Part shown: in pieces, positions 27,636 to 52,651 of the stretch
How the letters are laid out: each line of letters begins with the position of its first letter
How positions within the stretch are numbered: the first letter of the stretch is position 1
Origin: Rhynchopus sp. YZ270_cl-10
Taxonomy: Eukaryota
DNA: 64,000 bases
Direction: 5' to 3'
Assembly (NCBI GenBank): GCA_964035575.1
Contig: OZ037839.1
Span: forward strand, 806,001 to 870,000
The notes under the pieces: model-generated
Databases searched by the model: none
The model's input: the letters and a program-made list of their open reading frames with translations, nothing else
Told to the model about the DNA's origin: nothing
Program-made: the position numbers and the translations under genes

Positions 27636-29129
27636 TTATGCTGCCCCCAACTCTCCAAATCCTCTTTTTGTTCCTCTTTTTTGTCCTCTTTTTTTCACTC
27701 TCTTTTGTCCTGCTTTCAATGTAATACATTGTCTTGCACTTCCAGACACGTCTGTTCGTACTGCCTCAAAAGCTTCCATCCGCACATCTTCGAACTGTTC
27801 CGTAAACCTTGCGTAAATCTCACGCACACGTACAGAGAAGGCCTCCTTGTAGGTGCTCATTCTAGGGTCTCCATTCGGGAGAGACAACATCTCGTCAATG
27901 TCGATGTTGCCTGGCAAGACGACTGTTGTGAGTGCGCTGCAGTTGATCAGGAAGCGGCGATGGATCTCTGTGCTCCTACCTATACCTGACATGTCCAGCG
28001 TCGTCAAGGATGTGCAATCTTTCAGGAAACCACCATCAATCTGTCTAACATTGCTCAGTCCTGATAAGTCTGCTGTTGTCAACGCGGAGCACCCTTCCAT
28101 CCAGCCTGGCCCAATGTGTGTGATGCTGCGCAACACTGATAAATCAACTGTTTTCAATGATGAACACTGCAAAAGAAAGTTGGTCCCGATGCCACAACCC
28201 ACCTTCACAACTTTGTGCAGTGCTGTCGAGTCAATCGTTTCCAACGAGGTGCAGGCCCAACAAAAGCTGTTCCCAATTTCCGTCACATTCGTCATCCCTG
28301 AAAAGCTGATGGTGGTCAACGACTTGCAGTTGAAGAGAAACTCGGAGCCGATCTTCGTGACACTGCAAAAAGCTGACAAATCAATGCTTGCCAACGAGGT
28401 GCAGCTCGACAGGAAGTTGTTCTGAATGTGTGTGATTCTGCGCCATCCTGAGATGTCAATCCTCTTCAACGAATTGCAGGAGGCAAGAAAGTCTGCACCA
28501 ACCTTCGTCACACTCGTCATATGGGATAAGTCAAGATTTGTGACGCCACATCCTTGGAGGAACCTGTTCCCTATCACCGTCACACCAGTGAACCCTGACA
28601 CGTCAAGGCTTCTCAACGATGTGCAGTCATAGAGACAGTAGTCCCCGATGTGCGTAACGTTGCACAATCCCGACAAATCAACGGTTTCCACCGACGCACA
28701 CTTGTAGAGGAAGTAGTCCTCAATTCGTGTCACACCAGACACAGCAGAGAGATCAAGTCTCGTAAACGATGCTTGCGACAAGAACCAGTTCGGAATAACA
28801 GTCGCAACCTCCGCCTGAAGAAGCAGAGAAGCCACCTCAGGATCCTTCACAGTCCGCAACCTCGCTTCGGAAATGTCTGTCTCACCCAAGGCACGAAGTG
28901 CTTCAAGAGATTGGTATTTCGTCGACTTCGTCAATACGACTGTGTCTCCAGCACTCAGTTCTGTGATGTCCTCTCCTTCCTCCTTCCCTCCGAAGCCCAT
29001 GCGGAAGCTGTCTTCGCACAACCCTGTTGCAGACGCCACCTTCTGCCGCATCGTCTCCGTTGTGTCCTTCTCACCCACCTCAATCACGAATTTGGTTTCA
29101 TCATCATATCCCTGCACACACAGTTCCAT
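27636..29129 (-). CDS. UBL + BspA-type LRR protein, paralogue 2
   Basis: Same UBL head and LRR framework, about one repeat deleted; degenerate FG-tail remnant around the stop. Confidence 0.88.
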   Translation of the reverse strand: MELCVQGYDDETKFVIEVGEKDTTETMRQKVASATGLCEDSFRMGFGGKEEGEDITELSAGDTVVLTKSTKYQSLEALRALGETDISEARLRTVKDPEVASLLLQAEVATVIPNWFLSQASFTRLDLSAVSGVTRIEDYFLYKCASVETVDLSGLCNVTHIGDYCLYDCTSLRSLDVSGFTGVTVIGNRFLQGCGVTNLDLSHMTSVTKVGADFLASCNSLKRIDISGWRRITHIQNNFLSSCTSLASIDLSAFCSVTKIGSEFLFNCKSLTTISFSGMTNVTEIGNSFCWACTSLETIDSTALHKVVKVGCGIGTNFLLQCSSLKTVDLSVLRSITHIGPGWMEGCSALTTADLSGLSNVRQIDGGFLKDCTSLTTLDMSGIGRSTEIHRRFLINCSALTTVVLPGNIDIDEMLSLPNGDPRMSTYKEAFSVRVREIYARFTEQFEDVRMEAFEAVRTDVSGSARQCITLKAGQKRVKKRGQKRGTKRGFGELGAA

Positions 29130-29706
29130 TGTTTCGAGTGACGTGTTGCTCTGTTGTGGGGTAAAGTGTTGAGAAGGAGGAGGAGGTCAAGATACAACAA
29201 AATAGCTTTCTTGTTTGTTGTTGTCCTTCCGTAATATTCCGTACTTTTCTTTTCCCCACCCATTTGCTTTAACCTTGCTTGCATGGGGTGATCTGAGGAC
29301 TTTTTTACAATACCCCCCATTCTCTATTTTGCTGTCGTCCTCTCTTTGTTCACCGTATCCATCCTCTCTCTCTCTCTCTCTTTTTTGAAACATCCAAAAG
29401 ACCCGAAAAACCCTCAAAAACCCACGTATTGCAAGAGCTCTGTGCGAAGAAGAACTGAGAGTTGCATTACAAGGGTGGAGTGACATGAAATGAAATGAAC
29501 CGGTGACAAAAGGTGAAGGCGATCTCTGTTAATGGTATGCACTTCGTATGTTCTTCAAATGCCTACCGACTGAACGTGCTACACTATTCATGAAAACAAA
29601 AACAAAATCGACCTAAAAGGCTCAACAATTTTTGTGCAAATGAAGTTCGATATGTTCACCGTCTTCTTCACACAAGTCACCAAACCCGCCAAATGCTCCT
29701 GCTTCC

Positions 29707-31416
29707 CTACTCCTGCTTGTGTTGCTCCTGTTTGTCCCGTCCAAACCCTCCAAACCCTCCTGCTTGCAAATCTCCTGTTTGTCCCGTACCAAGCCTCCTC
29801 CTTTTCGTCCTCCCTGTTTGTCCTGCTCCAAGTCCTTCTGATAGTCCTTCTCCTGTTTGTCCTGCCCCAAACCCTCCAAATCCTCCTGCTTGTCCTCGTC
29901 CTGATGTGCTTACATCAGACCGTTCTCTCTCTTGTCCTGCTTTCAATGCAATACATTGTCTTGCACTCCCAGACACGTCTGTTCGTACTGCCTCAAAAGA
30001 TTCTATCCGCACATCTTCGAACTGTTCCGTAAACCTTGCGTAAATGTCACGTACATGTGCATGGAAGGTCTTCGTGCCGTCGCTCAAGCCCACGTTTGCA
30101 TGAATGTCGATATTGCCTGGTACGAAGAGTGTTGTGAGTGCGTTGCAGTTGAGCAGGAAGTCGCAGCTGATTGTTGTGTCACTGCCAAAACCTGATATAT
30201 CCAGCGTGGTCAAGGATGTGCAATCTTGCAGGAAATATGCATCAATCTGCGTAACATTGCTCATTCCTGAGAAGTCTGCTGTTGTCAACGCGGAGCACTC
30301 TTGCATCCAGCCGCCCTCAATATGTGTGATGCTGCGCAACACTGATAAATCAACTGTTTGCAATGATGAACACTCTTTTAGAAACGCTGACCCAACAAAC
30401 CCCCCTGACCCAATGGCTGTGACATTGCCAAAAGCTGAAAGGTCGATACTTCCCAGCGAGGTGCAGCTCTCAAGAAAGCCATACTCTACCTTCACAACCC
30501 TGTGCAGTGCTGATAAGTCAATCGTTTTCAACGAGGTGCAGTACGAACAAAATGCCATGTCAATTTCCGTGACATTGGTCATCCCAGAAAAGCTGACGGT
30601 GGGCAACGACTCGCAGCAGGTGAGAAAGTCGGAGCCGATCTTCGTGACATTGCCAAATGCTGACAAATCAATCGTTGCCAACGAAGTGCTGTGCGACAGG
30701 AAGTTGTTCTCAATGTGCGTGATTCTGTGCCATCCTGAGATGTCAATCTTTTCCAACGACTGGCAGTAGGCAAGAAAGTATGCACCAACCTCCGTCACAC
30801 TCGTCATATGGGATAAGTCAAGCTTTGTGATGCCAGTTCCTTTGAAGAACGAGTCCCCTATCACCGTCACAGCAGTGAACCCTGACACGTCAAGGCTTGT
30901 CAACGATGGGCAGTCAGAGAGAAAGAAACGCCCAATGTGCGTAACGTTGCACAATCCCGACAAATCAACGGTTTCCACCGACCTACAACTGTAGAGGAAG
31001 TGGTGCTCAATTCGTGTCACACCAGACACAGCAGAGAGATCAAGTCTCGTAAACGATGCTTGCGCCAAGAACCAGTGCGGAATAACAGTCGCAACCTCCG
31101 CCTGAAGAAGCAGAGAAGCCACCTCAGGATCCTTCACAGTCGCCAACCTCGCTTCGGAAATGTCTGTCTCACCCAAGGCACGAAGTGCTTCAACAGATTG
31201 GTACTTCGTCGACTTCGTCAACACGACTGTGTCTCCAGCACTCAGTTCTGTGATGTCCTCTCCTTCCTCCTTCCCTCCGAAGCCCATGCGGAAGCTGTCT
31301 TCGCACAACCCTGTTGCAGACGCCACCTTCTGCCGCATCGTCTCCGTTGTGTCGTTCTCACCCACCTCAATCACGTATTTGGTTTCATCATCATATCCCT
31401 GCACACACAGTTCCAT
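29707..31416 (-). CDS. UBL + BspA-type LRR protein, paralogue 3 (short degenerate FG tail)
   Basis: Same architecture; a few GGFGGFG units, then a frameshift before the family C-terminus GFGDLCEE. Confidence 0.88.
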   Translation of the reverse strand: MELCVQGYDDETKYVIEVGENDTTETMRQKVASATGLCEDSFRMGFGGKEEGEDITELSAGDTVVLTKSTKYQSVEALRALGETDISEARLATVKDPEVASLLLQAEVATVIPHWFLAQASFTRLDLSAVSGVTRIEHHFLYSCRSVETVDLSGLCNVTHIGRFFLSDCPSLTSLDVSGFTAVTVIGDSFFKGTGITKLDLSHMTSVTEVGAYFLAYCQSLEKIDISGWHRITHIENNFLSHSTSLATIDLSAFGNVTKIGSDFLTCCESLPTVSFSGMTNVTEIDMAFCSYCTSLKTIDLSALHRVVKVEYGFLESCTSLGSIDLSAFGNVTAIGSGGFVGSAFLKECSSLQTVDLSVLRSITHIEGGWMQECSALTTADFSGMSNVTQIDAYFLQDCTSLTTLDISGFGSDTTISCDFLLNCNALTTLFVPGNIDIHANVGLSDGTKTFHAHVRDIYARFTEQFEDVRIESFEAVRTDVSGSARQCIALKAGQERERSDVSTSGRGQAGGFGGFGAGQTGEGLSEGLGAGQTGRTKRRRLGTGQTGDLQAGGFGGFGRDKQEQHKQE

Positions 31417-31879
31417 TGTTTCGAGTGAAGTGTTGCTCTGTTGTGGGGTAAGTGTTGAGAAGGAGGAGGAGGGAGGCAAGATACAACAAAATAGCTTTCT
31501 TGTTTGTTGTTGTCCTTCCGTAATATTCCATACTTTTCTTTTCCCCACCCATTTGCTTTAACCTTGCTTGCACATCCCACTCTTATTTTTCCTTCTTTCA
31601 AAACTTCACACACAACGCTTTTGATTTTTTGGGAGACACAACAAGGTGCCAGGTTCTATGATATGCACGGAACCACCCTACACCTGTTTGTCATATTGTT
31701 TTCCGTGCAATACATGGAGAAACGTTTCGCACTCGAAACTAGGGCCTCCCGGCATCTATCAAAGAGGGAAAAGAAGATTATCGCACAGAATAGCTTTCTT
31801 TTTTGTTTTTCCTGGTGTGGACGACCCCCAAAAAAGCAGAAAATAGCCCAAAAATAGCACCCCCCTTCAGCCACACCAT

Positions 31880-32228
31880 TTCCACTTCTCCAGGTACTCT
31901 CCCCATATGAACAAGAACTAACAGGTACATGACATGTCTGTATGGAAACAAAGTGCTATTTTCGTTGAAACGCAGCCCTGCAGGTTGTCAAAAAGATCAG
32001 TGTGGCGCACACTGAGAATGAGGCAAACAGGACATAGATGCGTTATCAAATCATCTGAACGTTGTATTTTTTATCAGTTCCTAATCACACCATCGTCATG
32101 GGAAAGAAGGGGCAATAGCTATCGATGCAGGCATTCCTCTGACTGACCCACTGTACGATGCCAGCCATCCAGATGAAAGCACAAACCCCCTCTTGGTATC
32201 GCATACTGAAGCAGCTGAAAGTTGCACT
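31880..32228. repeat. Spacer segment shared by UBL-LRR duplication units (also about 46686-46985, 49651-49980, partly 52980-53035)
   Basis: Near-identical ttccacttctccaggtactctccccatatgaacaagaac...gccagccatccagatgaa. Confidence 0.85.
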
Positions 32229-32423
32229 TTTGATGACTCGCGTTGTGGTTTTTGTCGGGTCTCTGATCTATCTGTGCGACGGATATATTTCCCCTAACAC
32301 TCCATGTTTGGCCAGGGCCTCTCCAGCGCGTCAGTTGCAAAAAAAAAAAAAACGAATAGTGTATGAGATCACCCTAAACGTATCATACGTCGGGACAAGC
32401 GAAATAACACTTTACCCAAGAGC

Positions 32424-35400
32424 TCACAGGTGTATCCAAAAATGCAGTTCAATAGGTTCACCGAAGTGTTCTTCACACAAATCACCAAACCCTCCAAATC
32501 CCCCTGCTTGTCCTGTTCCTGTTTGTCCACCCCCAAACCCTCCAAACCCTCCTTCTTGTGTTGCTCCTGCTTGTCCTACACCAAACCCTCCAAACCCTCC
32601 TGCTTGTGTTGCTCCTGCTTGTCCTGCACCAAACCCTCCAAATCCTCCCGTTTGTGTTGCTCCTGCTTGTCCTACACCAAACCCTCCAAACCCTCCTGCT
32701 TGTGTTGCTCCTGCTTGTCCTGCACCAAACCCTCCAAATCCTCCTGCTTGTGTTGCTCCTGCTTGTCCAGCCTCCTCCTCCTCCTCGTCCTCGTCGTCAG
32801 ATCCCTTGTTTGCCTGGTACTCGGCGAGCTTGACCTGGTACTCCTTCTTCAGATCAAGCGCCTTCTCGGTGTACTCAGTCTTGTCCTCGTCGTCCATCTC
32901 CCCCCAACGCCTGCCACATTCCTTGGCGATGTCACCAATCTTCCAGTCCGGGTTCTCCTCCTTCAGCTCGGCACGGATGTCGTTGACGAAGATGAAGTAG
33001 GCGCTGAGAGGACGCTTCGGTGCGTTGGGGTCCTCCTTGGCCTTGCGCTTCTTGGGACCTTCGTCCTCCTCCTCGTCCTCGTCGTCAGATCCCTTGTTTG
33101 CCTCACACTCAGCAAGCTTGACCTGGTACTCCGTCTTCAGCTCAGCACCAAACCCTCCAAACCCTCCTGCTTGTGTTGCTCCTGCTTGTCCACCCCCAAA
33201 CCCTCCAAATCCTCCTGCTTGTGTTGCTCCTGCTTGTCCTACACCAAACCCTCCGAATCCTCCCGTTTGTGTTGCTCCTGCTTGTCCTGCACCAAACCCT
33301 CCAAACCCTCCTGCTTGTGTTGCTCCTGTTTGTCCACCCCCAAACCCTCCAAATCCTCCCATTTGTGTTGCTCCTGTTTGTCCAGCCTCCTCCTCCTCCT
33401 CGTCCTCGTCGTCAGATCCCTTGTTTGCCTGGTACTCGGCGAGCTTGACCTGGTACTCCTTCTTCAGATCAAGCGCCTTCTCGGTGTACTCAGTCTTGTC
33501 CTCGTCGTCCATCTCCCCCCAACGCCTGCCACATTCCTTGGCGATGTCACCAATCTTCCAGTCCGGGTTCTCCTCCTTCAGCTCGGCACGGATGTCGTTG
33601 ACGAAGATGAAGTAGGCGCTGAGAGGACGCTTCGGTGCGCTGGGGTCCTCCTTGGCCTTGCGCTTCTTGGGACCTTCGTCCTCCTCCTCGCCCTCGTCGT
33701 CAGATCCCTTGTTTGCCTCACACTCAGCAAGCTTGACCTGGTACTCCGTCTTCAGCTCAGCACCAAACCCTCCAAACCCTCCTGCTTGTGTTGCTCCTGC
33801 TTGTCCTGCACCAAACCCTCCAAATCCTCCTGCTTGTGTTGCTCCTGTTTGTCCACCCCCAAACCCTCCAAATCCTCCTGCTTGTGTTGCTCCTGCTTGT
33901 CCTGCACCAAACCCTCCAAATCCTCCTGTTTGTGTTGCTCCTGTTTGTCCTGTACCAAAGCCTCCAAATCCTCCCATTTGTGTTGCTCCTGTTTGTCCTG
34001 CACCAAACCCTCCAAATCCTCCTGCTTGTGTTGTTCCTGTCTGTCCTACACCAAACGCTCCAAATCCTCCTGTTTGTCCTGCACCAAACCCACCAAACCC
34101 TCCAAATCCTCCTGCTTGTGTTGCTCCTGTTTGTCCTGCACCAAACCCTCCAAACCCTCCTGTTTGTGTTGCTCCTGTTTGTCCTGTACCAAAGCCTCCA
34201 AATCCTCCCATTTGTGTTGCTCCTGTTTGTCCTGCACCAAACCCTCCAAATCCTCCTGCTTGTGTTGTTCCTGTCTGTCCTACACCAAACGCTCCAAATC
34301 CTCCTGTTTGTCCTGCACCAAACCCACCAAACCCTCCAAATCCTCCTGCTTGTGTTGCTCCTGTTTGTCCTGCACCAAACCCTCCAAATCCTCCTGTTTG
34401 TGTTGCTCCTGTTTGTCCTGTACCAAAGCCTCCAAATCCTCCCATTTGTGTTGCTCCTGTTTGTCCTGCACCAAACCCTCCAAATCCTCCTGCTTGTGTT
34501 GTTCCTGTCTGTCCTACACCAAACGCTCCAAATCCTCCTGTTTGTCCTGCACCAAACCCACCAAACCCTCCAAATCCTCCTGCTTGTGTTGCTCCTGTTT
34601 GTCCTGCACCAAACCCTCCAAACCCTCCTGTTTGTGTTGCTCCTGTTTGTCCTGTACCAAACCCTCCAAACCCTCCTGTTTGTGTTGCTCCTGTTTGTCC
34701 TGTACCAAACCCTCCAAACCCTCCTGTTTGTGTTGCTCCTGTTTGTCCTGTACCAAACCCTCCAAATCCTCCTGCTTGTGTTGCTCCTGTTTGTCCTGCA
34801 CCAAACCCTCCAAATCCTCCTGTTTGTGTTGCTCCTGTTTGTCCTGCACCAAACCCTCCAAATCCTCCTGTTTGTGTTGCTCTTGCTTGTCCTGCACCAA
34901 ACCCTCCAAATGCCGCAGTGACGGGCAGGATCTCACGCACCTGCTTCGTTGCAATGTTTGTATGCTGTGCCGTCTTGCCTCTGATGAAAGAGAAGATGAG
35001 GTGCCCCCCAAAAGCGTCTATCCGCTGCACACCTCCGAACTGTTTCCTCGCGTAAATATCACACACACGTGCATGGAAGGTCTGTCGCTTCTCCTTGCTG
35101 ATGCTAAAGCCTACTTTATTCGCGGGACACTGCTGCCTGTTCTCGTTTCTCTTGTGCGCTTCTTTTGGGAGAGACATCTCGTGAATGTCGAAGTTGCCTG
35201 GCACGGAGAGTGATGTGAGTGCGTCGCAGTTGAGCAGGAATCCGTCGACCTCGACCGTTGTGTCACTGGCTATTCCTGACATGTCCAGCGTCGTCAAGGA
35301 TGTGCACTCTTTCAGGAAATTTACACCAATCTGCGTAACATTGCTCAGTCCTGATAAGTCTGCTGTTGTCAACGCAGAACACTTTTGCAACCAGCTGCCC

Positions 35401-36479
35401 TCAATATGTGTGATACTACGCAACACTGATAAATCAACTGTTTTCAATGATGAACACTCAAAAAGAAAGTGGTGTTCGATGTCTGTGGCACTCCCAAAAG
35501 CTGAAAGGTCGATACTTCCCAGCGAGGTGCAGATCGCAAGAAAGCCGTACTCTACCTTCACAACTCTGTGCAGTGCTGATAAGTCAACCGTTTTCAACGA
35601 GGTGCAGTACGAACAAAGCTGGTGCCCAATTTCCGTCACATTCGTCATCCCTGAAAAGCTGATGGTGGTCAACGACGTGCAGGAGTAGAGAAATCGGTGG
35701 CCGATCTTCGTGACACTGCAAAATGCCGACAAATCAATGCTTGCCAACGAGGTGCAGTTATGGAGGAAGCCGTCCTCAATGTGCGTGACTCTGCGCCATC
35801 CTGAGATGTCAATCCTCTCCAACGACTTGCAGTGGCGGAGAAAGTATGCACCAACCTTCGTCACACTCGTCATATGGGATAAGTCAAGATTTGTGACGCC
35901 ACATCCTTGGAGGAACCTGTTCCCTATCACCGTCACACCAGTGAACCCTGACACGTCAAGGCTTGTCAACGATGTGCAGTCAGAGAGACAGGCATTCCCA
36001 ATGTGCGTAACGTTGCACAATCCCGACAAGTCAACGGTTTCCACCGACTCACACCTGAAGAGGAAGCCTTCCTCAATTCGTGTCACACCAGACACAGCAG
36101 AGAGATCAAGTCTCGTAAACGATGCTCTGCACAAGAACTGCTTCGGAATAACAGTCGCAACCTCCGCCTGAAGAAGCAGAGAAGCCACCTCAGGATCCTT
36201 CACAGTCGCCAACCTCGCTTCGGAAATGTCTGTCTCACCCAAGGCACGAAGTGCCTCAACAGATTGGTACTTCGTCGACTTCGTCAACACGACTGTGTCT
36301 CCAGCACTCAGTTCTGTGATGTCCTCTCCTTCCTCCTTCCCTCCGAAGCCCATGCGGAAGCTGTCTTCGCACAACTCTGTTGCAGACGCCACCTTCTGCC
36401 GCATCGTCTCCGTTGTGTCGTTCTCACCCACCTCAATCACGTATTTGGTTTCATCATATCCCTGCACACACAGTTCCAT
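32424..36479 (-). CDS. UBL + LRR + long FG-repeat tail with two HMG boxes, paralogue 4 (about 1351 aa from MELCVQ)
   Basis: Continuous ORF: UBL, LRRs, (GGFGGFGAGQTGATQA)n, two copies of PKRPLSAYFIFVNDIRAELKEENPDWKIGDIAKECGRRWGEM (HMG box), end GDLCEEHFGEPIELHFWIHL. Confidence 0.88.
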   Translation of the reverse strand: MELCVQGYDETKYVIEVGENDTTETMRQKVASATELCEDSFRMGFGGKEEGEDITELSAGDTVVLTKSTKYQSVEALRALGETDISEARLATVKDPEVASLLLQAEVATVIPKQFLCRASFTRLDLSAVSGVTRIEEGFLFRCESVETVDLSGLCNVTHIGNACLSDCTSLTSLDVSGFTGVTVIGNRFLQGCGVTNLDLSHMTSVTKVGAYFLRHCKSLERIDISGWRRVTHIEDGFLHNCTSLASIDLSAFCSVTKIGHRFLYSCTSLTTISFSGMTNVTEIGHQLCSYCTSLKTVDLSALHRVVKVEYGFLAICTSLGSIDLSAFGSATDIEHHFLFECSSLKTVDLSVLRSITHIEGSWLQKCSALTTADLSGLSNVTQIGVNFLKECTSLTTLDMSGIASDTTVEVDGFLLNCDALTSLSVPGNFDIHEMSLPKEAHKRNENRQQCPANKVGFSISKEKRQTFHARVCDIYARKQFGGVQRIDAFGGHLIFSFIRGKTAQHTNIATKQVREILPVTAAFGGFGAGQARATQTGGFGGFGAGQTGATQTGGFGGFGAGQTGATQAGGFGGFGTGQTGATQTGGFGGFGTGQTGATQTGGFGGFGTGQTGATQTGGFGGFGAGQTGATQAGGFGGFGGFGAGQTGGFGAFGVGQTGTTQAGGFGGFGAGQTGATQMGGFGGFGTGQTGATQTGGFGGFGAGQTGATQAGGFGGFGGFGAGQTGGFGAFGVGQTGTTQAGGFGGFGAGQTGATQMGGFGGFGTGQTGATQTGGFGGFGAGQTGATQAGGFGGFGGFGAGQTGGFGAFGVGQTGTTQAGGFGGFGAGQTGATQMGGFGGFGTGQTGATQTGGFGGFGAGQAGATQAGGFGGFGGGQTGATQAGGFGGFGAGQAGATQAGGFGGFGAELKTEYQVKLAECEANKGSDDEGEEEDEGPKKRKAKEDPSAPKRPLSAYFIFVNDIRAELKEENPDWKIGDIAKECGRRWGEMDDEDKTEYTEKALDLKKEYQVKLAEYQANKGSDDEDEEEEEAGQTGATQMGGFGGFGGGQTGATQAGGFGGFGAGQAGATQTGGFGGFGVGQAGATQAGGFGGFGGGQAGATQAGGFGGFGAELKTEYQVKLAECEANKGSDDEDEEEDEGPKKRKAKEDPNAPKRPLSAYFIFVNDIRAELKEENPDWKIGDIAKECGRRWGEMDDEDKTEYTEKALDLKKEYQVKLAEYQANKGSDDEDEEEEEAGQAGATQAGGFGGFGAGQAGATQAGGFGGFGVGQAGATQTGGFGGFGAGQAGATQAGGFGGFGVGQAGATQEGGFGGFGGGQTGTGQAGGFGGFGDLCEEHFGEPIELHFWIHL
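32472..34911. repeat. Coding minisatellite: 48-bp FG unit, 234-bp higher-order repeat (x3), 615-bp FG+HMG duplication
   Basis: Unit accaaaccctccaaatcctcctgcttgtgttgctcctgtttgtcctgc; offsets of 234 bp (34046/34280/34514) and 615 bp (33000/33615) visible. Confidence 0.95.
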
Positions 36480-39769: not shown

Positions 39770-40769
39770 GTAACCCCACATAGGCCCATTACCATGGTTT
39801 CGTTAGCCCTTGTGACATGCCCTCCTGCAGTTTCCTGCTCATCGGCGGCCTCTAGTCCGTGTGGACTTGGGCCACTACCAGCTTCCGGAGGAGCGACGCT
39901 CACGTGCGACCGTCGGACCGGTCACTGCTCTGGGTGCCATGTGCTCTAGCCAATTCTTGACGAGGATGGGGGTGCAGACCGCCAAGTCCGGACGGTCGGA
40001 GGGAACCTTCCCCACCGCACGTCAGTTCTCCTTAGCTCTTTGTGACTTGACTCGTGCCGGTGCTGGTGTCTACAAGCTTCAACCTCTTCTTGTGACCCAC
40101 CGAGCACGCAGCCAACAGTGCGTCAAACCCTCAGGATCCACAAATCAATGGTTGCCAACGAAGTGCAATAATAGAGGAAGTTGTCCTCAATGTGCGTGAT
40201 TCTGCGCCATCCTGAGATGTCAAGACTTTTCAACGAGTTGCAGTAGGCAAGAAAGTGTGCACCAACCTTCGTCACACTCGTCATCTCGGATAAGTCAAGA
40301 TTTGTGACGCCACTTGCTTGTAGGAATAACTTCCCTAACACCGTCACACCAGTGAACCCTGACACGTCAAGGCTTGTCAACGATGTGCAGTCATAGAGAC
40401 AGTAGTCCCCGATGTGCGTAACGTTGCACAATCCCGACAAGTCAACGGTTTCCACCGACGTACACCTGTAGAGGAAGCCTTCCTCAATTCGCGTCACACC
40501 AGACACAGCAGAGAGATCAAGTCTCGTAAACGATGCTTCGCTCAAGAACCAGTTCGGAATAACAGTCGCAACCTCCGCCTGAAGAAGCAGAGAAGCCACC
40601 TCAGGATCCTTCACAGTCCGCAACCTCGCTTCGGAAATGTCTGTCTCACCCAAGGCACGAAGTGCTTCAACAGATTGGTACTTCGTCGACTTCGTCAACT
40701 GTAGGGGTCCGTTTTCGATGCATGCACCCCTATCCGAGATAGGTGATACAATACATCGTGGAGGTGATG

Positions 40770-43700
40770 TTACATAAGTCCATCACCGCCCCTGCTGTGT
40801 CCATCCTTCTGCTTCTTCTTGCTGAAGAGGCCTCCCAACGTCGTCTGTCGCCCCCCCGCAGTGTCGTGGTGGCGGCGGCAGCAGTGGTCCAGGGTTGTCT
40901 TGTCCCGCACGCAATTTCCGCATCTCGAGAGTCTGTGTCGTGTGCACGCCTCGTGTCGAATGGCCAGCCCATCGCCGTCGGAGTGGTGCGCATAGCAGCA
41001 GTGCCTCAGGTCTGCCATCTGGTCCTTCGCACAGGCGTCACATCGGGCCTTCCGGTGCTGCACACAGATCGCAAATGGCCCAATCGAGATCGCTCCTGCA
41101 GGTGCCTTCACAGGCGCGTCTCCTGGTTTCACGTGCTCATCGTGCCTGTAACGTATGGGCACGTTCTCCTCTTCTGCCTGCTCGAAAAAGCGCAGCGCCC
41201 TCCTTCCCCTCTCGTCTGCGGGGGGGTATGCCGTCTCAGCAGCGTACTCCCCCATCCACGTACCCCTCGCTCTACCGTTGCCCCTAATCTCCCCCTCCGT
41301 CATGCCTTCCGTCTTGCGCTGCTGTCGGTACGCCGTGCCAGCGTCGAAAAGTGCACGTAGAACACGTATGGTCTCTTCACCGCCGGCAAAAACAGGACGG
41401 CAGTCGATACCGGCGAGACCGTGTGCCCCGAACGACGTCAGTGTCATAGCTATCTTCGGCTTACCCGGATGCAGTGGCGTTGCAGCATGGGTTCGGAGAG
41501 TAGACAGCATGTGACCAAAAGTGGTCGCTTTCGCCATTTCGTTGTGGGGAAGAGCTTCTGGCATCACGTCGTCGCCGTCGCCGTCGTCGCTGCCACCCTC
41601 CCCACCCCCGTCATCCATTTCCCCGTCGCCACCCCCACCACCATTGACCACGCCCCCAGCCCCGTTCCCCGGTTGCTTCACTTTTGGCGGCTTTTTTCCA
41701 GTCTTATCTCCGGGGCGGATGTCCATCCCCGTGGAGACCTCGAAGTCAATGAGGAGTTCCATGTGCGAGACTTCGCGTCCAGCCTCGTTGCTCCACCGTA
41801 GGCCTCCCAGCCAGTAGGCAATCGCCAGCAGCAACGCACGTCCATACGGCCATTTCTTCACTGGGAGGGTGCAGCTTCCTAACACATTCGGATACTGCGT
41901 CGTCGTGTCCGCATCCGGTTCCCATGTCCACGGATAACGCTCTTGCTCCAGTTGCGGCTTCATCTCTTGTGTCCTGTTTTGCCGGTATCGCTCGATGAGG
42001 ATCCTCACCATCATCATCTGCAGGTCTGCAACACGGGCGGTGGCCAAAGGTGTTTCCGGTGTGCACATTCCGCAGATAGACAGACAGTTCGGCCAGTTCG
42101 TTCTGTCAATGTTCAGGAGTAAGGGGTAGTCCGTGCGGATGCTTTCCCATGCGACACACTCCCACCACATATGCTTGGGATCCTCATCCACCCCTGCAGC
42201 ACAATACGGGCAGGTGGCCGTTTCTCGTAACTTTGCCCTCGCAAGTCGCACCCCCGTGAGAGTACCGTCAGCCACGATGTGTCGTAACGTCCCCGCCTCG
42301 TAGTCCGACAAAACTTTGCTCTTGGTAAGCGCCAGTGTCTTCTCCTTGTCCACCCCTGCTCGGATCCCCCGCAGGTTAGCTCTGCCTCCGCCTTTTGCAT
42401 TCACGTCTGTCTTCGTACTGGAGAGCCGTACGAAGAACATGCGCTCCCGCACAAGATGGCCGAGTTCCCCTAGCTCAATGGTCTTCACATCGATGAGGTT
42501 CCCGTCGTGCGTCGTCACTGTCGTGGCGCTCTCCCATTTCCAGTTGAGGCGGAGTAGAGCGCGTGCAACCAACCCGATGGGCCCCCCAGACTTCGCTTGC
42601 TTCCGTTTCGCTCGTACCCTGCAGTTCTCAAGCAGTGCACAGATCTCCTCCGACTTGCGCGTCATCTTAGCCCACGTCATGATCCGTCTGTAGTCGAAGG
42701 CCACCCCGGGGTCGAGTAGGTGGCCTTTCTCGAAGAGATTCAACATGACCCTGGTACTCCGTCGGCTCACCCGATTAGCGCCGTGTATTCCTCTCTCCAT
42801 CGCATTACCCAGGGTGGTCTCACAACAAACGTTAGGGTCCTGCACTGTGATCCCGTACACCGACTTGGACATCACTGCGGCCTGCATGATGCCCGCTTTT
42901 TCCCCTTGCGTCAACGGAAGGCGGCCTACCTTATCTGATAGTGGACCACATTCCCTGATCGTCTCTTCCAGTTTCGTCGGGAGCGTGGGCGCACCAGCTT
43001 GACGGGCCTGCACCGTCGCCCCCAGGCAGACCGACTTCTCGACGCGAGTGAGATCGGAGCCGTTCATCTGCACAGTTTCTTCTTCGTCAGGGCGATTGCT
43101 CTGCCACGTGCTCTTCCCCACGTGGATGCGCTGTCCCGTCAAGTCTGCGAAGTGTCCGGTGAAGGTGACTCCCGTTCGTAGCTGACTGAGTGTTTTCGTC
43201 AGGAGATTGGTGTCGTCTGCGTATGCCAATCCCTGCGTGCCCGTTTCCCTCTCTACCCCGTTCATCCACACCGCCACCAACGCATTCAGGAAGATGACAC
43301 TCAGCGGGCATCCTTGGAGGATACCGTTCGTCGCAAACCACTCTTGTCCAAGACCAGCCGGGAGTTTAAAACGCCTCCCCAGCTTCTTGTACATCCCACG
43401 GATGGGTCGCATCATATTCTGCGGCAGGCCTAGCTGTTCGACCAGGCGGAACATAATCTCCTGTGGCACTCTGTCAAAACACTTTTGGTAGTCGAAGGAG
43501 GCTAGATAGATAGGTGTGTTGTCTATCAGAGCCTCCTCCATCTTCGCACAAAGATACCACAGTAGGTCTTCGGTTCCATGCTTGTTGCGGAAGCCGTGCT
43601 GGCGTTGGTGTATCCACGACTCTTGCCACGCTGCTACTTTGCGGAGACGAGTCGCCGCCCATAACCTGTACATCACACTGGTGATGGTAATGGGACGCTG

Positions 43701-45770
43701 CTTCAGCGGTTCCTCGCCTTCTCCTTTGGGGATGAGCACCACCATAGCCCTCGCAATTGCCCTGGGCCAGTTTCCTGTCTCCTCAATCACGTTCAGGCAG
43801 CACGCTAGCTCTTCCAGCATTAACGGAGGTAGTTCCTTCAGCTCCTCCACTCTCCATCCATCGAGGCCTGCCGCCTTCTTCCGCTTCATCTTGCCGATGG
43901 TCTTGCTGAGGTCCTCGCCGGTCAAAGGTCCGCAGTCACAGGGTGCCCCCTCGGGAATGTGCTCCTTGAACCTCTCGAAGAAGGTCGCCCATGCAGGTTC
44001 CTCGGATTCGCCGTACATCCGGAACACCCCTCCCCACGCCTGGTCACCCATAAGAAGCTCGTCCATCTCCTTGAGGTTGGCAGTCACAGTGCCGTCCTCT
44101 CGTTTCAGGAAAGTCGTGTGCGAAGACGTGGCTTTTCTTAACGTCTGGAAGACCTTCTCGGGGCTTGACGTCATGTGTTCCTTCATGGAGCGACGCCATT
44201 CTCGGATGCGTTTCTGTCGTCGGCGCTCGAGTAAGGCCAGCCCTTGCTTCTTTAGGCACCCAAGGAGACCACACAACGCTTCTACGTCGGGGTGTTCGAG
44301 ACCCCAAGTGTCGTTCTGCAGAAGATGTCGTTTCGCACGCGCTTTCGCCCACAGGTGTCTCTCATCCACCGATTCCGCAGAAGGTTGGCCGATGCGCTTC
44401 CTCCGTCCACCAATGAGTTGTTCCAGTTGTCGACACGTCTTCTGCAACTGAGCCGTCTCCAGGTTCACAGCATCAGGCATGTCGGGGTCCGTGCGAGCCG
44501 ACCGATGTCGCAATACATCAGGTTTCACCTCACCTCTCCCCCTGTGGCGGTGCTGTTTTGCCTCAATCTCACCCCTCCGCAGGAAGTAGTCCTCTGCAGT
44601 TTTGCAAAAGCGAGCCCAACGCTCCTCAACAGATAGCTTCTCGAGTTCGGCGTCGGTGAGTGCGTTCTCTTGCAGCACCTCTCTCGCAAGCACCTTCTCC
44701 TTGGCAGCCGGCCATTTGGACCAATCCTCGCCAATCAGGGGTAGGGGAGGACGTGCTTGGGGAGCCTTCTGCTCGTAACACTCGAGGTCCAGTGTCAGCA
44801 CCACCGGCCTGTGGGTGGAGATGCAGCTGTCAGTCCAGACCTCCACTTTGGAGATTGCAGGAGCAGCCACGTGGTTCGCCAATACCAGGTCGATGCGGCT
44901 GCCAGAAGATGTGGAGGTGTAGCACGTTTTCTCCACTTCCGTACCCGACTGCTGCGCGTACGAGTCTGCTGCATCAACCCATTTTCCGGAGGAGATTGCC
45001 GCTCGGATGACAGCGCTCTCCTGTGCCTCGACGTTGAAGTCTCCGGCAATGAACACCGGTATGTCCCCAAGGCTGGCAGCTTCCTCCAGGATGTCTGTCA
45101 GGAGTAGTTCCGTGCGGGCCTTGTCGTCACACACACCATAAAACGAGAAGACAGAGATGTTGCGTCCTCCGTTCCCATAAGCCACCTGCGCATGTGACAG
45201 ACGACATTCCTCCCATGCTTTCTGGGCACCCTGCGGCGGTACCGCTCTGGTTGGTATGTCTGCGCGCGACATGATCGCAACCCCACCGTTTTGTGTCCGT
45301 GTGCGCAGGTCGGATCCTCGGCTTCGTCTGCAGGGGGCACCAAAGAGGATCTGTTTGGCGCCAAACTCCTTAACGGCAAGCGCAGCACCCTTCATCTCAT
45401 CCGCTGTGAGGCGCACTTCCTGCAGCGCGCAGATGTCCAGATCCCATTCCCCCACCGCGAAGTGTGCCGACAAGGATGTCACATTCGCAGTGCCAAGCAT
45501 CATGGACGGACCCGGATTCTCCTCCACGTCTCCACATGTCAGCAGTGACCCCCTGCCCAAAAACGCCCCCCGTCGCCTCCCTCGACGCACTCTTTGTCGA
45601 GCCCCTCGACCCACCCCTCTACGTGTTCTACCCTTACCCCTAGTCCCCGACAGCATACAGCCCGCAGAGCGCAAACGATGCTGACCCCTTGTTGGGGAGA
45701 CAGTTTTCACAAAAACGTCTCGTTCTCCAACTACGCACGAAGAAGCCAATCCTGTGCCGTACCCTTCCAC
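40770..45770 (-). CDS. LINE pol ORF: 2A-like peptide, AP endonuclease, reverse transcriptase, CCHC finger, C-terminal Cys/His repeats
   Basis: GDVEENPGP; APE motifs (ANV, LQEV, AGDFN, SRIDLVL, STHRPV); RT motifs (AAGLDG, QRPIT, QHGFR, FDYQKCFDRV, GILQGCPLS, YADD, CLG); CPYC-x9-H-x4-C. Confidence 0.95.
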   Translation of the reverse strand: MEGYGTGLASSCVVGERDVFVKTVSPTRGQHRLRSAGCMLSGTRGKGRTRRGVGRGARQRVRRGRRRGAFLGRGSLLTCGDVEENPGPSMMLGTANVTSLSAHFAVGEWDLDICALQEVRLTADEMKGAALAVKEFGAKQILFGAPCRRSRGSDLRTRTQNGGVAIMSRADIPTRAVPPQGAQKAWEECRLSHAQVAYGNGGRNISVFSFYGVCDDKARTELLLTDILEEAASLGDIPVFIAGDFNVEAQESAVIRAAISSGKWVDAADSYAQQSGTEVEKTCYTSTSSGSRIDLVLANHVAAPAISKVEVWTDSCISTHRPVVLTLDLECYEQKAPQARPPLPLIGEDWSKWPAAKEKVLAREVLQENALTDAELEKLSVEERWARFCKTAEDYFLRRGEIEAKQHRHRGRGEVKPDVLRHRSARTDPDMPDAVNLETAQLQKTCRQLEQLIGGRRKRIGQPSAESVDERHLWAKARAKRHLLQNDTWGLEHPDVEALCGLLGCLKKQGLALLERRRQKRIREWRRSMKEHMTSSPEKVFQTLRKATSSHTTFLKREDGTVTANLKEMDELLMGDQAWGGVFRMYGESEEPAWATFFERFKEHIPEGAPCDCGPLTGEDLSKTIGKMKRKKAAGLDGWRVEELKELPPLMLEELACCLNVIEETGNWPRAIARAMVVLIPKGEGEEPLKQRPITITSVMYRLWAATRLRKVAAWQESWIHQRQHGFRNKHGTEDLLWYLCAKMEEALIDNTPIYLASFDYQKCFDRVPQEIMFRLVEQLGLPQNMMRPIRGMYKKLGRRFKLPAGLGQEWFATNGILQGCPLSVIFLNALVAVWMNGVERETGTQGLAYADDTNLLTKTLSQLRTGVTFTGHFADLTGQRIHVGKSTWQSNRPDEEETVQMNGSDLTRVEKSVCLGATVQARQAGAPTLPTKLEETIRECGPLSDKVGRLPLTQGEKAGIMQAAVMSKSVYGITVQDPNVCCETTLGNAMERGIHGANRVSRRSTRVMLNLFEKGHLLDPGVAFDYRRIMTWAKMTRKSEEICALLENCRVRAKRKQAKSGGPIGLVARALLRLNWKWESATTVTTHDGNLIDVKTIELGELGHLVRERMFFVRLSSTKTDVNAKGGGRANLRGIRAGVDKEKTLALTKSKVLSDYEAGTLRHIVADGTLTGVRLARAKLRETATCPYCAAGVDEDPKHMWWECVAWESIRTDYPLLLNIDRTNWPNCLSICGMCTPETPLATARVADLQMMMVRILIERYRQNRTQEMKPQLEQERYPWTWEPDADTTTQYPNVLGSCTLPVKKWPYGRALLLAIAYWLGGLRWSNEAGREVSHMELLIDFEVSTGMDIRPGDKTGKKPPKVKQPGNGAGGVVNGGGGGDGEMDDGGGEGGSDDGDGDDVMPEALPHNEMAKATTFGHMLSTLRTHAATPLHPGKPKIAMTLTSFGAHGLAGIDCRPVFAGGEETIRVLRALFDAGTAYRQQRKTEGMTEGEIRGNGRARGTWMGEYAAETAYPPADERGRRALRFFEQAEEENVPIRYRHDEHVKPGDAPVKAPAGAISIGPFAICVQHRKARCDACAKDQMADLRHCCYAHHSDGDGLAIRHEACTRHRLSRCGNCVRDKTTLDHCCRRHHDTAGGRQTTLGGLFSKKKQKDGHSRGGDGLM

Positions 45771-45782
45771 CGCACCACACCG

Positions 45783-46195
45783 TCACCGCACCACATCGCG
45801 CAGGGTGTTGCGGCCTACTATCCTGTTGTCCAGTCCCTGGACGGGACGAAACGCGATCTCGATGACGCCCCCCGCCACCTTCACGACAGTCACCGGGATG
45901 GCTGCGCCGTTGCCTCCCTCCTCGCAGTACTCCATGGAGTCGCCAGCCTCCAGCACTGCGTTCCCGTACGACTCCTCGTTCTTCTCGTTCCCCTCCGCCT
46001 GCTCTTTTGCGGGGACTTCCGTCCGTATCCTGCGCGGCGGACTCAGCAGCGCCACCGTCTCACCGGACTCACTGCGGTCTTCCCGCTTGCCCGCCAGGGT
46101 CACAGCAGGTGGCGCCACCGGCACTCTGGGAGCTGGCGAGGTCTCCGCGTCCTCCTCGACAGCCGCACATTCTGGCGAAGTCTGCACCGGCAGTG
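45783..46195 (-). CDS. 3' remnant of LINE upstream ORF (ORF1-like), in frame with pol
   Basis: Open from the element's 5' junction to TGA at 45785-45783; acidic/Pro-rich stretch, then a short beta-rich segment. Confidence 0.55.
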
Positions 46196-47250
46196 TTCGT
46201 CGACTTCGTCAACACGACTGTGTCTCCAGCACTCAGTTCTGTGATGTCCTCTCCTTCCTCCTTCCCCCCAAAGCCCACATGAAAGCTGTCTTCGCACAAC
46301 CCTGTTGCAGACGCCACCTTCTGCCGCATCGTCTCCGTTGTGTCGTTCTCACCCACCTCAATCACGTATTTGTTTTCATCATCATATCCCTGCACACACA
46401 GTTCCATTGTTTCGAGTGAAGTGTTGCTCTGTTGTGGGGTAAGTGTTGAGAAGGAGGAGGAGGGAGGCAAGATACAACAAAATAGCTTTCCTTTTTTGTT
46501 TTTGAGTATACGAGAATCGTCATATAAAAAATAAAACTCTGTTTTTAGATCTTGCGCCGAATTACTCCCCATACTCATTCACTCAGGACAGTAATTCGAG
46601 CGATCAACGAAAAAACCTATCCTCTTTTTTTCCACGATTTCGTTTGTTTTGACTGAATATCTATCTAAAAAAGGAAGAGTTTTGTTTTCCACTTCTCCAG
46701 GTACTCTCCCCATATGAACAAGAACTGACAGGTACATGACATGTCTGTATGGAAACAAAGTACTATTTTCGTTGAAACGCAGCCCTGCAGGTTGTCAAAA
46801 TGATCAGTGTGGCGCACACTGAGAATGAGGCAAACAGGAAATAGATGCGTTATCAAATAACCTGAACGTTGTATTTCTTATCTGTTCCTAATCACACCAT
46901 CGTCGTGGGAAAGAAGGGGGAATAGCTCTCGATACAGGCATTCCTCCGACTGACCCACTGTACGATGCCAGCCATCCAGATGAAGGCGCAATACAATAAG
47001 CAGCTATCGCGAACAATGAAAGAGTTTTTTCAGGCAAGGTATGTGGTAAGAGGAAGAATAAAACATTACGAACAAACCTCCACCCTCATTCGCAAGCTTC
47101 ACTTCCGCTTTGGTTTTCTCCTCACATGAAACAATTAAATTACTGGGGTAGAATAATTTCGTTCCTTTGTGAATGCAAAAATCCACACCAAAGATTTTAT
47201 CCTCCACGTATCATACGTGGGACAAGGGAAATAATACTTTACCCAAGAGC

Positions 47251-49386
47251 TCACAGGTGTATCCAAAAATGCAGTTCAATAGGTTCACCGAAGTGTTCTT
47301 CACACAAATCACCAAACCCTCCTGCTTGTGCTGTTCCTGCTTGTCCTGCCCCAAACCCTCCAAACCCTCCTGCTTGTCCTGCTCCTGTTTGTCCTGCTCC
47401 AAACCCTCCAAATCCTCCTGCTTGTGTTGCTCCTTCTTGTCCTGCACCAAACCCTCCAAATCCTCCTGCTTGTGTTGCTCCTTCTTGTCCTGCACCAAAC
47501 CCTCCAAACCCTCCTGCTTGTGTTGCTCCTTCTTGTCCTGCCCCAAACCCTCCAAATCCTCCTGCTTGTCCTGCTCCTGTTTGTCCTGCTCCAAACCCTC
47601 CAAATCCTCCTGCTTGTGTTGCTCCTTCTTGTCCTGCACCAAACCCTCCAAATCCTCCTGCTTGTCCTGCTCCTGTTTGTCCTGCACCACACCCTCCAAA
47701 TCCTCCTGCTTGTGTTGCTCCTGTTTGTCCTGCCCCAAACCCTCCAAACCCTCCTGCTTGTCCTGCTCCTGTTTGTCCTGCACCAAACCCTCCAAATCCT
47801 CCTGCTTGTGTTGCTCCTGCTTGTCCTGCCCCAAACCCTCCAAATCCTCCTGCTTGTCCTGCTCCTGTTTGTCCTGCCCCAAACCCTCCAAATCCTCCTG
47901 CTTGTGTTGCTCCTGCTTGTCCTGCCCCAAACCCTCCAAATCCTCCTGCTTGTGTTGCTGCTGTTTGTCCTGCTTTCAATGCAATACATTGTCTTGCATC
48001 TCCAGACGCGTCTTGTCCTGCTGCCTTAAAGCGTACTACCCGCACACCTCTGGACTGTTTAGCAAACATTGCGTACATTACACGCGCCCGCACATGAAAC
48101 GGTACCGACCTGCACCGCAGCATGCTACGCTCCTCATTTGATAACTTCTCGTCAATGTCGATGTTGCCTGGAAAGACGACTGTTATGAGTGCGTTGCAGT
48201 TGCGCGGGAATTGGCTTCCGACCTGCGCGTCGATCATCGTGTCCCTACCTATTCCTGACATGTCCAGCGTCGTCAAGGATGTGCACCCTTGCAGGAAATA
48301 TTCTTGAATCCGTTTAACATGGCTCATTACAGAGAAGTCTGCTGTTGTCAACGCGGAGCAGTTAACAAGAAAGTAGTGCCCGATGTCTGCGACACTGCCC
48401 AAAGCTGAAAGGTCGATACTTCCCAGCGAGGTGCAGCCCTTCAGAAAGCCTTGCCCTACCTTCATAACTTTGTGCAGTGCTGATAAGTCAATCGTTTCCA
48501 ACGAGATGCAGTCCCTACAAAAGCTGTCCCCAAGTTCCGTCACGTTGGTCATCCCTGAAAAGTTGATGGTGGTCAACGACTTGCAGTGGCCGAGAAAGTC
48601 GGAGCCGATCTTCGTGACACTGCAAAAAGCTGACAAATCAATGGTTGTCAACGAGAAGCAGCTCTGGAGGAAGTTGCCCTCAATGTGCGTGATTTTGCGC
48701 AATACTGAGATGTCAATCTTTTCCAACGATTTGCAGCTGAGAACAAAGCCTGCACCAACCTTCGTCACACTCGTCATCGCGGATAAGTCAAGATTTGTGA
48801 CGCCACTTCCTGCGAGGAACCTGTTCCCTATCACCGTCACACCAGTGAACCCTGACACGTCAAGGCTTGTCAACGATGGGCAGTAAGAGAGACAGGCATT
48901 CCCAATGTGCGTAACGTTGCACAATCCCGACAAGTCAACGGTTTCCACCGACGCACACCCGTAGAGGAAGTAGTCCTCAATTCGTGTCACCCCAGACACA
49001 GCAGAGAGATCAAGTCTCGTAAACGATGCTCTGCACAAGAACTGCTTCGGAATAACAGTCGCAACCTCCGCCTGAAGAAGCAGAGAAGCCACCTCAGGAT
49101 CCTTCACAGTCGCCAACCTCGCTTCGGAAATGTCTGTCTCACCCAAGGCACGAAGTGCTTCAACAGATTGGTACTTCGTCGACTTCGTCAACACGACTGT
49201 GTCTCCAGCACTCAGTTCTGTGATGTCCTCTCCTTCCTCCTTCCCTCCGAAGCCCATGCGGAAGCTGTCTTCGCACAACCCTGTTGCAGACGCCACCTTC
49301 TGCCGCATCGTCTCCGTTGTGTCGTTCTCACCCACCTCAATCACGTATTTGGTTTCATCATCATATCCCTGCACACACAGTTCCAT
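47251..49386 (-). CDS. UBL + LRR + FG-repeat tail, paralogue 6
   Basis: UBL head, LRRs, about 13-14 AGGFGGFGAGQxGAxQ units (about 47299-47970), same C-terminus as paralogue 4. Confidence 0.9.
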   Translation of the reverse strand: MELCVQGYDDETKYVIEVGENDTTETMRQKVASATGLCEDSFRMGFGGKEEGEDITELSAGDTVVLTKSTKYQSVEALRALGETDISEARLATVKDPEVASLLLQAEVATVIPKQFLCRASFTRLDLSAVSGVTRIEDYFLYGCASVETVDLSGLCNVTHIGNACLSYCPSLTSLDVSGFTGVTVIGNRFLAGSGVTNLDLSAMTSVTKVGAGFVLSCKSLEKIDISVLRKITHIEGNFLQSCFSLTTIDLSAFCSVTKIGSDFLGHCKSLTTINFSGMTNVTELGDSFCRDCISLETIDLSALHKVMKVGQGFLKGCTSLGSIDLSALGSVADIGHYFLVNCSALTTADFSVMSHVKRIQEYFLQGCTSLTTLDMSGIGRDTMIDAQVGSQFPRNCNALITVVFPGNIDIDEKLSNEERSMLRCRSVPFHVRARVMYAMFAKQSRGVRVVRFKAAGQDASGDARQCIALKAGQTAATQAGGFGGFGAGQAGATQAGGFGGFGAGQTGAGQAGGFGGFGAGQAGATQAGGFGGFGAGQTGAGQAGGFGGFGAGQTGATQAGGFGGCGAGQTGAGQAGGFGGFGAGQEGATQAGGFGGFGAGQTGAGQAGGFGGFGAGQEGATQAGGFGGFGAGQEGATQAGGFGGFGAGQEGATQAGGFGGFGAGQTGAGQAGGFGGFGAGQAGTAQAGGFGDLCEEHFGEPIELHFWIHL

Positions 49387-52482: not shown

Positions 52483-52651
52483 GCCTCATTGTGGGCGAAA
52501 TACAGGCGCCACTTCTAGAGAAGGCTTTGATGTACAATGGGGTGATTGGGGGGCTTTCTTTTTCAGGAAAATTCACTTGAGGTTCGCATAAATCCACAAA
52601 GCCTTCACAAAATATTCACTATCGATATCGAGTAATTTCTTTTTCTGTACC

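Follow-up and report, generated by a model that had tools for sequence, protein, structure and literature searches.

In the Podospora NWD/HNWD genes (het-d and het-e; PMC1805685), WD40 repeats borne on NACHT NTPases are exchanged within and between loci, vary in number, and show positive selection on four codons per repeat. The candidate immune receptors of Ectocarpus (LRR-ROCO and NB-ARC-TPR; PMC3341825), an organism that is neither animal nor plant, combine birth-death evolution with shuffling of repeats that are under diversifying selection; the repeats correspond one to one to exons, the proteins contain a GTPase or NB-ARC domain, and somatic recombination has been proposed. Trichomonas vaginalis and Entamoeba carry very large expansions of BspA-type leucine-rich repeat (LRR) proteins (PF13306), parasite surface or adhesion proteins of which many are transmembrane and many lack a signal peptide (PMC2843621, PMC5349171). 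In the RHS family of trypanosomes, a Euglenozoan family, genes are split at a 5′ coding site by ingi/RIME retroelements, and gene conversion and unequal crossover have been invoked (PMC7563717). Our account of these systems, here and below, draws on portions of the cited papers. We compare them with an array of seven related genes (copies 1 to 7) in a 64,000-nucleotide (nt) window of Rhynchopus sp. YZ270_cl-10 (contig OZ037839.1, positions 806,001 to 870,000), of which copy 5 is split by a retrotransposon of the long interspersed element (LINE) type.

Copies 1 to 6 lie in tandem, each encoding a weak ubiquitin-like domain followed by BspA-type LRRs, and are 87 to 93% identical in DNA over their shared parts. 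An initial annotation of positions 27636 to 49386, whose numbering we keep (copy 1 lies just outside this range and copy 6 ends at 49386), described them as repeat-by-repeat mosaics; it overlooked that five codons per repeat are under diversifying selection, how large the family is, and that the LINE insertion site is a hot spot throughout the family. We are confident that the mosaic is real, and it is best explained by known processes. Probably, these tandem genes, which belong to a large family encoding ubiquitin-like plus BspA-type LRR proteins, have had their repeats swapped by ordinary recombination, while five residues in each repeat were kept diverse. As in Podospora, repeats are exchanged, their number varies, and a handful of codons per repeat (five here, four there) is under positive selection. 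Unlike in Podospora, the repeats are BspA-type LRRs that follow a ubiquitin-like domain, an NTPase is absent, and the framework of copies 1 to 6 is position-specific, so that exchange is in register between paralogues. The genes also differ from those of Ectocarpus in being single open frames without a signalling NTPase, and from those of Trichomonas and Entamoeba in that their relatives are free-living flagellates and that all 120 members examined carry the ubiquitin-like module. The words "ubiquitin" and "gene conversion" are absent from the main text on the Trichomonas proteins (PMC2843621). The mechanism is already known; the combination of a large ubiquitin-like/BspA-LRR family under diversifying selection with a target-specific, in-frame-fusing LINE was not found in the literature searched.

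The motif sharing that first suggested mosaicism is present in the alignment throughout: copy 6 has KQFLCR and GNACLS in common with copy 4 and IEDYFLY with copy 2; copy 5 has IEEGFL as in copy 4, with GDYCLYDC and ARLRTV as in copy 2; and copy 4 has GNRFLQGCG as in copy 2, KVEYGFL as in copy 3, and the motif beginning FLAIC as in copy 1. These motifs do not carry equal weight. In repeat 2, FLYG occurs in 6 of 17 close members and Gly before FL in 9 of 17, and the YG of KVEYGFL occurs in 5 of the 9 close members in which repeat 9 is whole; because these are common family states, the weight of IEDYFLY, IEEGFL, and KVEYGFL comes down to one or two codons.

The formal tests used the six DNA sequences (copies 1 to 6) and, as proteins only, 11 further close members (17 close members in all). 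The six-copy set (nt 1 to 753) contains 128 variable and 50 informative sites. By a test like the pairwise homoplasy index (PHI), 46% of informative-site pairs were incompatible, and neighboring sites were more compatible than shuffled ones (P = 0.0002 at window w = 2 and 0.003 at w = 5), also when whole codons were shuffled (P = 0.0005 and 0.002 at the narrower windows). With five copies, extending to nt 1329, P was ≤0.0075 in all six settings. By an incongruence length difference (ILD) test, partitioning by repeat saved 13 parsimony steps (171, versus 184 for one tree), compared to 7.2 to 7.6 under reshuffling (P = 0.006).

The clearest tract is a 113-nt identity between copies 2 and 4 in repeat 4 (28496..28608 and 35849..35961, both on the minus strand), which holds GNRFLQGCG and forms a run of 24 polymorphic sites (global P = 0.0002; 0.0002 to 0.01 over the four sets containing both copies); the repeats flanking it differ at 7 and 9 nt. 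The repeat-1 cassette is identical in copies 4 and 6 (36112..36143 and 49016-49047, minus strand), with a global P for its KQFLCR tract of 0.0015 to 0.17 depending on the set; the FLAIC tract of copies 1 and 4 was not significant (global P = 0.14). Before nt 607, 14 of 69 polymorphic sites distinguish copies 4 and 6, compared to 58 of 97 beyond it (P = 0.001), and MaxChi gave P < 0.02 in 4 of 10 copy pairs. To set selection aside, we also examined 215 silent third positions, 24 of them variable: the best-fitting of 105 trees has a parsimony excess of 5 steps, whereas clonal simulations average 0.1 to 2.1. Under six models, P for silent-site homoplasy was 0.002, 0.002, 0.025, 0.002, 0.005, and 0.09, hence ≤0.025 in five of them.

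The 17 close proteins show the same scale of exchange. Ten pairs match at every one of a repeat's four core variable residues, versus 2.3 expected (P = 0.002), or 4.0 expected when halves are kept (P = 0.009), while only 1 pair is identical across the boundary to the next repeat, versus 2.3 expected. Mantel tests between blocks were nonsignificant in 19 of 21 cases. The same codon is used for 94 of 100 shared residues at variable codons, and repeat number varies in register (−1, −3, −5, and +2). Together, all these tests support in-register exchange at a scale of about one repeat. The recombination signal on which the mosaic proposal had been staked was thus found by the PHI-like, ILD, tract, and silent-site tests. 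A search of JGI metagenomes for related loci gave 597 pattern matches, none confirmed.

Several observations weigh against exchange. There are only six DNA sequences, so no single test is decisive. The tree ((2,5),(4,6)), optimal for three of seven partitions, needs no exchange to explain the motifs shared by copies 4 and 6 and by copies 2 and 5, which takes some force from the earlier view that the motifs are hard to fit on one tree; the part of that view that stands is that conflict overall exceeds chance. The copy 2/4 tract costs the overall tree only 3 additional steps and might reflect retained ancestry; MaxChi gave P > 0.05 in 6, or by another count 7, of 10 pairs; the silent-site P of 0.09 arose with a resolved tree and strong rate variation; and a star-like radiation would likewise yield flat Mantel values. 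The PHI-like test on six copies was not significant at the widest window (P = 0.19 at w = 10; codon shuffling, P = 0.07 at w = 4). Since significance is lost as the window widens, the signal decays within about one repeat.

The fit of one tree to three of seven partitions at a cost of 184 versus 171 steps, the majority states among the cited motifs, and the silent-site P of 0.09 favor the best-surviving alternative, in which there was no exchange: duplication on one tree or in a burst would have left ancestral states, and convergence at a few strongly selected codons with a small residue alphabet would have produced the rest. We consider this unlikely. Silent splits group copy 2 with copy 1, with copy 3, and with copy 5 in turn; cassettes are linked within repeats, not across them, and repeat number changes in register; and copies 4 and 6, nearly identical in their 5′ part, are as distant as any pair after nt 607. 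The short-tract exchange proposed by the initial annotation is supported by several tests, one of them on silent sites, and at a scale of about one repeat.

Variation concentrates at five positions (−2, −1, +2, +3, and +5) around the Phe-Leu of each repeat. By counting with bootstrap, the ratio of nonsynonymous to synonymous divergence (dN/dS) at these positions is 2.50 (95% interval, 1.72 to 3.88), compared to 0.54 in the rest of the LRR region, 0.57 at exposed main-strand positions, and 0.45 in the N-terminal module. Counting against selection, the positions were initially chosen by eye from the same alignment, and dN/dS for the whole LRR region is 1.11 (0.85 to 1.48); with positions chosen by entropy in 120 homologues, the ratio was 1.90 (1.31 to 2.88). 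Silent divergence (dS) at the variable codons is also raised (0.26 versus 0.11 and 0.04), as would be expected where old variants persist while the framework is homogenized. Copy 7 is a case of concerted evolution within one gene: its 75-bp repeats have a framework synonymous difference (pS) of 0.000 and a nonsynonymous difference (pN) of 0.35 at the same five positions. In this within-gene homogenization it resembles the Podospora NWD genes (PMC1805685), and framework identity between own repeats reaches ≥0.75 in 15 of 120 homologues.

An AlphaFold model of copy 1 (pLDDT 87, pTM 0.80) has residues 2 to 68 in ubiquitin-like strand/helix order, as in a beta-grasp fold, followed by three helices, a solenoid in which each repeat is a short strand plus a main strand, and a cap. 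The variable residues sit in the loop between the short and main strands and would together form one surface; the likely binding face of BspA-type LRRs would be the loop after the short strand rather than the main concave strand. LRR_5 (PF13306) scores 95 to 109 bits in all six whole copies (cutoff, 27.7), and the best Foldseek match to the model is the BspA-type structure 4fs7 (TM 0.41/0.53); a viral fold search gave generic LRR matches only, and in the ESM Atlas all matches scored <0.9, clusters pairing ubiquitin with DUF285 being a lead only. As for the N-terminal module, polyubiquitin chains rank first in a PDB sequence search, and PF00240 is hit at E = 3e-4 to 7e-4 in four of six whole copies, all below the cutoff. 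A C-terminal di-Gly and the Ile44 hydrophobic patch are hallmarks of ubiquitin-like modifiers and proteasome shuttles. The Pfam score (20.7 against a cutoff of 25.4), the lack of a di-Gly after the last strand, and a Gly at the position of ubiquitin Ile44 make a classical proteasome-shuttle role doubtful.

Pfam found no NACHT, NB-ARC, or Roc-COR domain in the window copies and no RHS domain with its ATP/GTP-binding motif; among 41 longer LRR relatives, no NTPase appears in the families shown, and most of these proteins seem unrelated outside the repeats. In 19-residue windows (a hydropathy scan rather than a dedicated predictor), the maxima of the six whole copies are 1.25 to 1.55, and 12 of 120 homologues reach ≥1.8; by this measure, the six whole copies lack the signal peptide or transmembrane anchor that marks BspA surface proteins. 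Twenty-four of 120 homologues terminate in CSVS or CVCM, ends that we take to fit the CaaX pattern; the window copies have neither CaaX nor a hydrophobic stretch. CaaX ends have been discussed for Entamoeba BspA proteins (PMC5349171).

We propose that homologous recombination between paralogues, of an ordinary kind and with no dedicated donor, would exchange repeats through gene-conversion tracts of ~30 to 150 nt and unequal crossover, over evolutionary time and from any family member. Under selection, the five loop residues in every repeat would stay divergent among copies and give each copy a distinct binding surface. The proteins might be cytosolic, some of them membrane-tethered via CaaX ends, and bind fast-changing foreign proteins, perhaps those of bacterial symbionts, parasites, or viruses, the ubiquitin-like domain serving as an invariant docking module; we put this forward tentatively, at a little under even chances, although a recognition role of some kind seems a reasonable reading. 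Diplonemids, the likely host group, are abundant marine predators with bacterial endosymbionts, and no description of diplonemid recognition or immune genes was found in the literature searched. The present family, large and with signs of an arms race at defined residues, offers a concrete candidate for such genes, and the group includes a transformable model species (PMC10161547).

The family extends well beyond the window: 445 proteins match copy 1 at E ≤ 1e-20, and the best 120 of them, all with the N-terminal ubiquitin-like module, come from ENA contigs of ~40 different lengths (counted by eye) and would belong to one genome. In short-read run X4, framework pieces have a depth of 2,750 to 4,644 versus 100 for private pieces, which hints at close copies numbering in the tens. 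Nine-residue cassettes that match exactly are also found in pairs of members from different contigs. Since the family is large, donors need not lie in this array. The suggestion that broken copy 5 acts as a donor is not supported: the tracts give no polarity, the pieces of copy 5 contain no stop or frameshift, the LINE is recent, and any family member could supply tracts. Among relatives, P0233, P0252, and P0284 have a B-box N-terminal to the ubiquitin-like/LRR part (a TRIM-like layout), P0187 joins a similar LRR protein to a RINT1/TIP1 domain, and another protein with similar LRRs is from Flectonema neradi. Our searches on diplonemid LRR/BspA families and on conversion or hypervariability of BspA genes found no description of this family in the literature covered, which excludes most subscription papers; the main text of the D. 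papillatum genome paper contains neither "LRR" nor "BspA," and its supplements could list such families.

The element that splits copy 5 at codon 71 is a 5′-truncated non-long-terminal-repeat retrotransposon of 5,496 bp (40700..46195, minus strand) between perfect 18-bp target-site duplications (5′ copy, 46196..46213; 3′ copy, 40682..40699; both minus). It comprises the end of open reading frame 1 (ORF1; 45786-46193, minus), closed by TGA, and ORF2 (40770-45782, minus), which encodes an APE endonuclease and a reverse transcriptase (RT), lies in the same frame behind a 2A-like motif, and is open over 1,670 codons. No poly(A) tail is present at the copy 5 junction, the sole DNA junction seen. 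Because the pieces of copy 5 are stop-free and ORF2 is open, the break is recent, and the pieces bear no mark of a donor. A search with the N-terminal module as the query among longer proteins, which favors in-frame fusions, found three proteins in which the ubiquitin-like module is fused to an OTU-domain protein of ~1,200 amino acids (aa), the end of which is 96% identical to the ORF1 remnant in the window. Cluster members add two fusions and one ORF1 without a host part (P0321), so that five of the six ORF1 proteins retrieved (P0318 to P0323) carry an in-frame host domain. The junction falls at the same codon in all five; with copy 5, six members have been hit, five of them seen at the protein level only. 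Among the fusions, ORF1 is 100% identical over 700 residues and the host domains are 68 to 94% identical, and every host part is nearest an intact LRR gene (narrowly for P0319, 0.96 versus 0.94). These insertions appear to be independent, very young, and located at one site, an RHS-like hot spot.

As in the RHS family (PMC7563717), a 5′ coding site in a Euglenozoan gene family is thus split by a retroelement; the two differ in that the host proteins are unrelated and that here ORF1 has an OTU domain and is mostly fused to the host domain. A young LINE aimed at one codon of a protein-coding family, with in-frame fusion, would be an apparently independent parallel to the trypanosome case; no target-specific, in-frame-fusing LINE was found in the literature, where beyond RHS no search was aimed at such diplonemid LINEs, and one may be in print. 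The ORF1 stop is TGA followed by CGG, and no stem-loop follows it (z = 0.24). Read-through at TGA-CGG-like stop contexts occurs in viruses. At copy 5 the target-site duplication directly follows the LINE, on which ground we rejected 3′ transduction of LRR DNA. Linkage is retained across the target site (ubiquitin-like domain versus linker, Mantel r = 0.37, P = 0.024); this lends no support to recombination being concentrated there, and the LINE does not appear to drive the mosaic. It is most likely a parasite of a conserved target present in many copies, not a shuffling engine. A minus-strand frame at 20579-21919 ends in a Cys/His motif that by eye resembles the ORF2 C terminus; it has no Pfam match and is probably a remnant of a related element.

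A bolder reading would couple the two. In such a scheme, the LINE would nick family members at one codon, equip its OTU-bearing ORF1 with the start and ubiquitin-like domain of the host, and leave broken copies as a cassette archive, so that hundreds of receptors would be reshuffled repeat-wise in clonal lineages as an anticipatory immune repertoire. We regard this as improbable, slightly more so than the absence of exchange. More doubtful still is programmed diversification, in which silent or LINE-broken copies would feed expressed ones during growth, perhaps starting from LINE nicks, much as in the VSG, vlsE, and VLR systems. Those systems are characterized by a silent cassette archive and a single expression site. 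A fixed framework with swappable cassettes, and at least six members that a very young LINE has split at the same codon, would suit such a process, and pseudogene reservoirs have been proposed for RHS and for the BspA proteins of T. vaginalis (PMC7563717, PMC2843621). Six of the seven window copies are open frames, however, in single-frame genes with near-identical 5′ flanks, and there is no archive of promoterless cassettes. Moreover, linkage across the target site is kept, the LINE is not separated from its target-site duplication by transduced LRR DNA, and four runs list only 9 differing places over 11.5 kb (in contigs, which drop rare variants). Mutagenesis of the diversity-generating retroelement type is rejected too: variable sites at the variable codons (A, 42 of 57; C, 28 of 53; G, 31 of 42; T, 22 of 28) are not adenine-specific, and the window RT is of the endonuclease-plus-RT LINE type.

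We return to ordinary exchange among paralogues, and to whether the assembly bears it out. At 100% identity, contigs from short-read runs of two studies cover 29 (X4) and 26 (X2) of the 30 bins into which the LRR region of copy 4 was divided; bins without cover (1 of 30 and 4 of 30) are uninformative, and low-depth joints with sides of 21 to 30 letters were left out. In X4, cassettes private to copy 4 have a depth of 100, like unique flanks (98 to 99), and those common to copy 4 and copy 6 or 2 reach 243 (220 and 588 in X2, versus 60 to 150), depth being only a hint of copy number. Chimera formation among ~90%-identical copies during assembly or polishing is a very unlikely source of the mosaics: none of the listed short-read pieces bridges two neighboring cassettes, so their order rests on the assembly, which counts against our reading, but copy 4 cassettes match at full identity and at fitting depths, the window lies on a 1.49-Mb contig that points to long reads, and the pattern recurs in the 11 additional close members, which lie on two contigs.

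The window, eukaryotic DNA poor in introns, has its long frames on the minus strand, where all seven copies lie and share the same ATG context. Copy 1 (25767..27317; 516 aa) comprises the ubiquitin-like domain (residues 1 to 68), a helical linker, 12 BspA-type LRRs, and a C-terminal cap. Copy 2 (27636..29129; 497 aa) has lost one repeat in register, and copy 3 (29707..31416; 569 aa) has a 6-codon insertion in repeat 10. Copy 4 (32424..36479; 1,351 aa) has a tail of 48-bp Gly/Phe-rich minisatellite units and two HMG boxes, the latter in 381-nt in-frame inserts (33381..33761 and 32766..33146) that differ by 2 nt; they would be a captured gene piece, and it is speculation that they form an integrated decoy domain. 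The tail (32424-34911) reads like nucleoporin FG repeats, and the same minisatellite occurs at the ends of other copies, read in other frames. Copy 5 retains a 5′ piece (46196..46407) with the ubiquitin-like domain as far as the target site and a 3′ piece (40140..40699) with the linker and about five LRRs before truncation. The latter stops abruptly at 40140, downstream of which lie a ~124-bp direct repeat (39232-39355/39646-39769) and A/T runs. Copy 6 (47251..49386; 711 aa) has one repeat fewer and a 48-bp minisatellite tail, and copy 7 (53581..54663; 360 aa) joins the same ubiquitin-like domain to a different, 75-bp LRR type.

Intergenic stretches at 25500-25880 and 31640-32410 have very high summed contig depth, with short high-copy interspersed repeats between the LRR genes. 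Minus-strand neighbors include, by eye, a 3,900-aa SPRY/HECT-like ligase (605-12499), an adenylate-cyclase-like membrane protein without a Pfam match (22383-24329), and a Nudix-like frame (51517-52485), as well as a TPR protein (50096-50980) and a P450 (60030-61670), whose best species-named match is from Diplonema papillatum (46%). A perfect 7-bp tandem repeat of 31 copies lies at 62795-63010.

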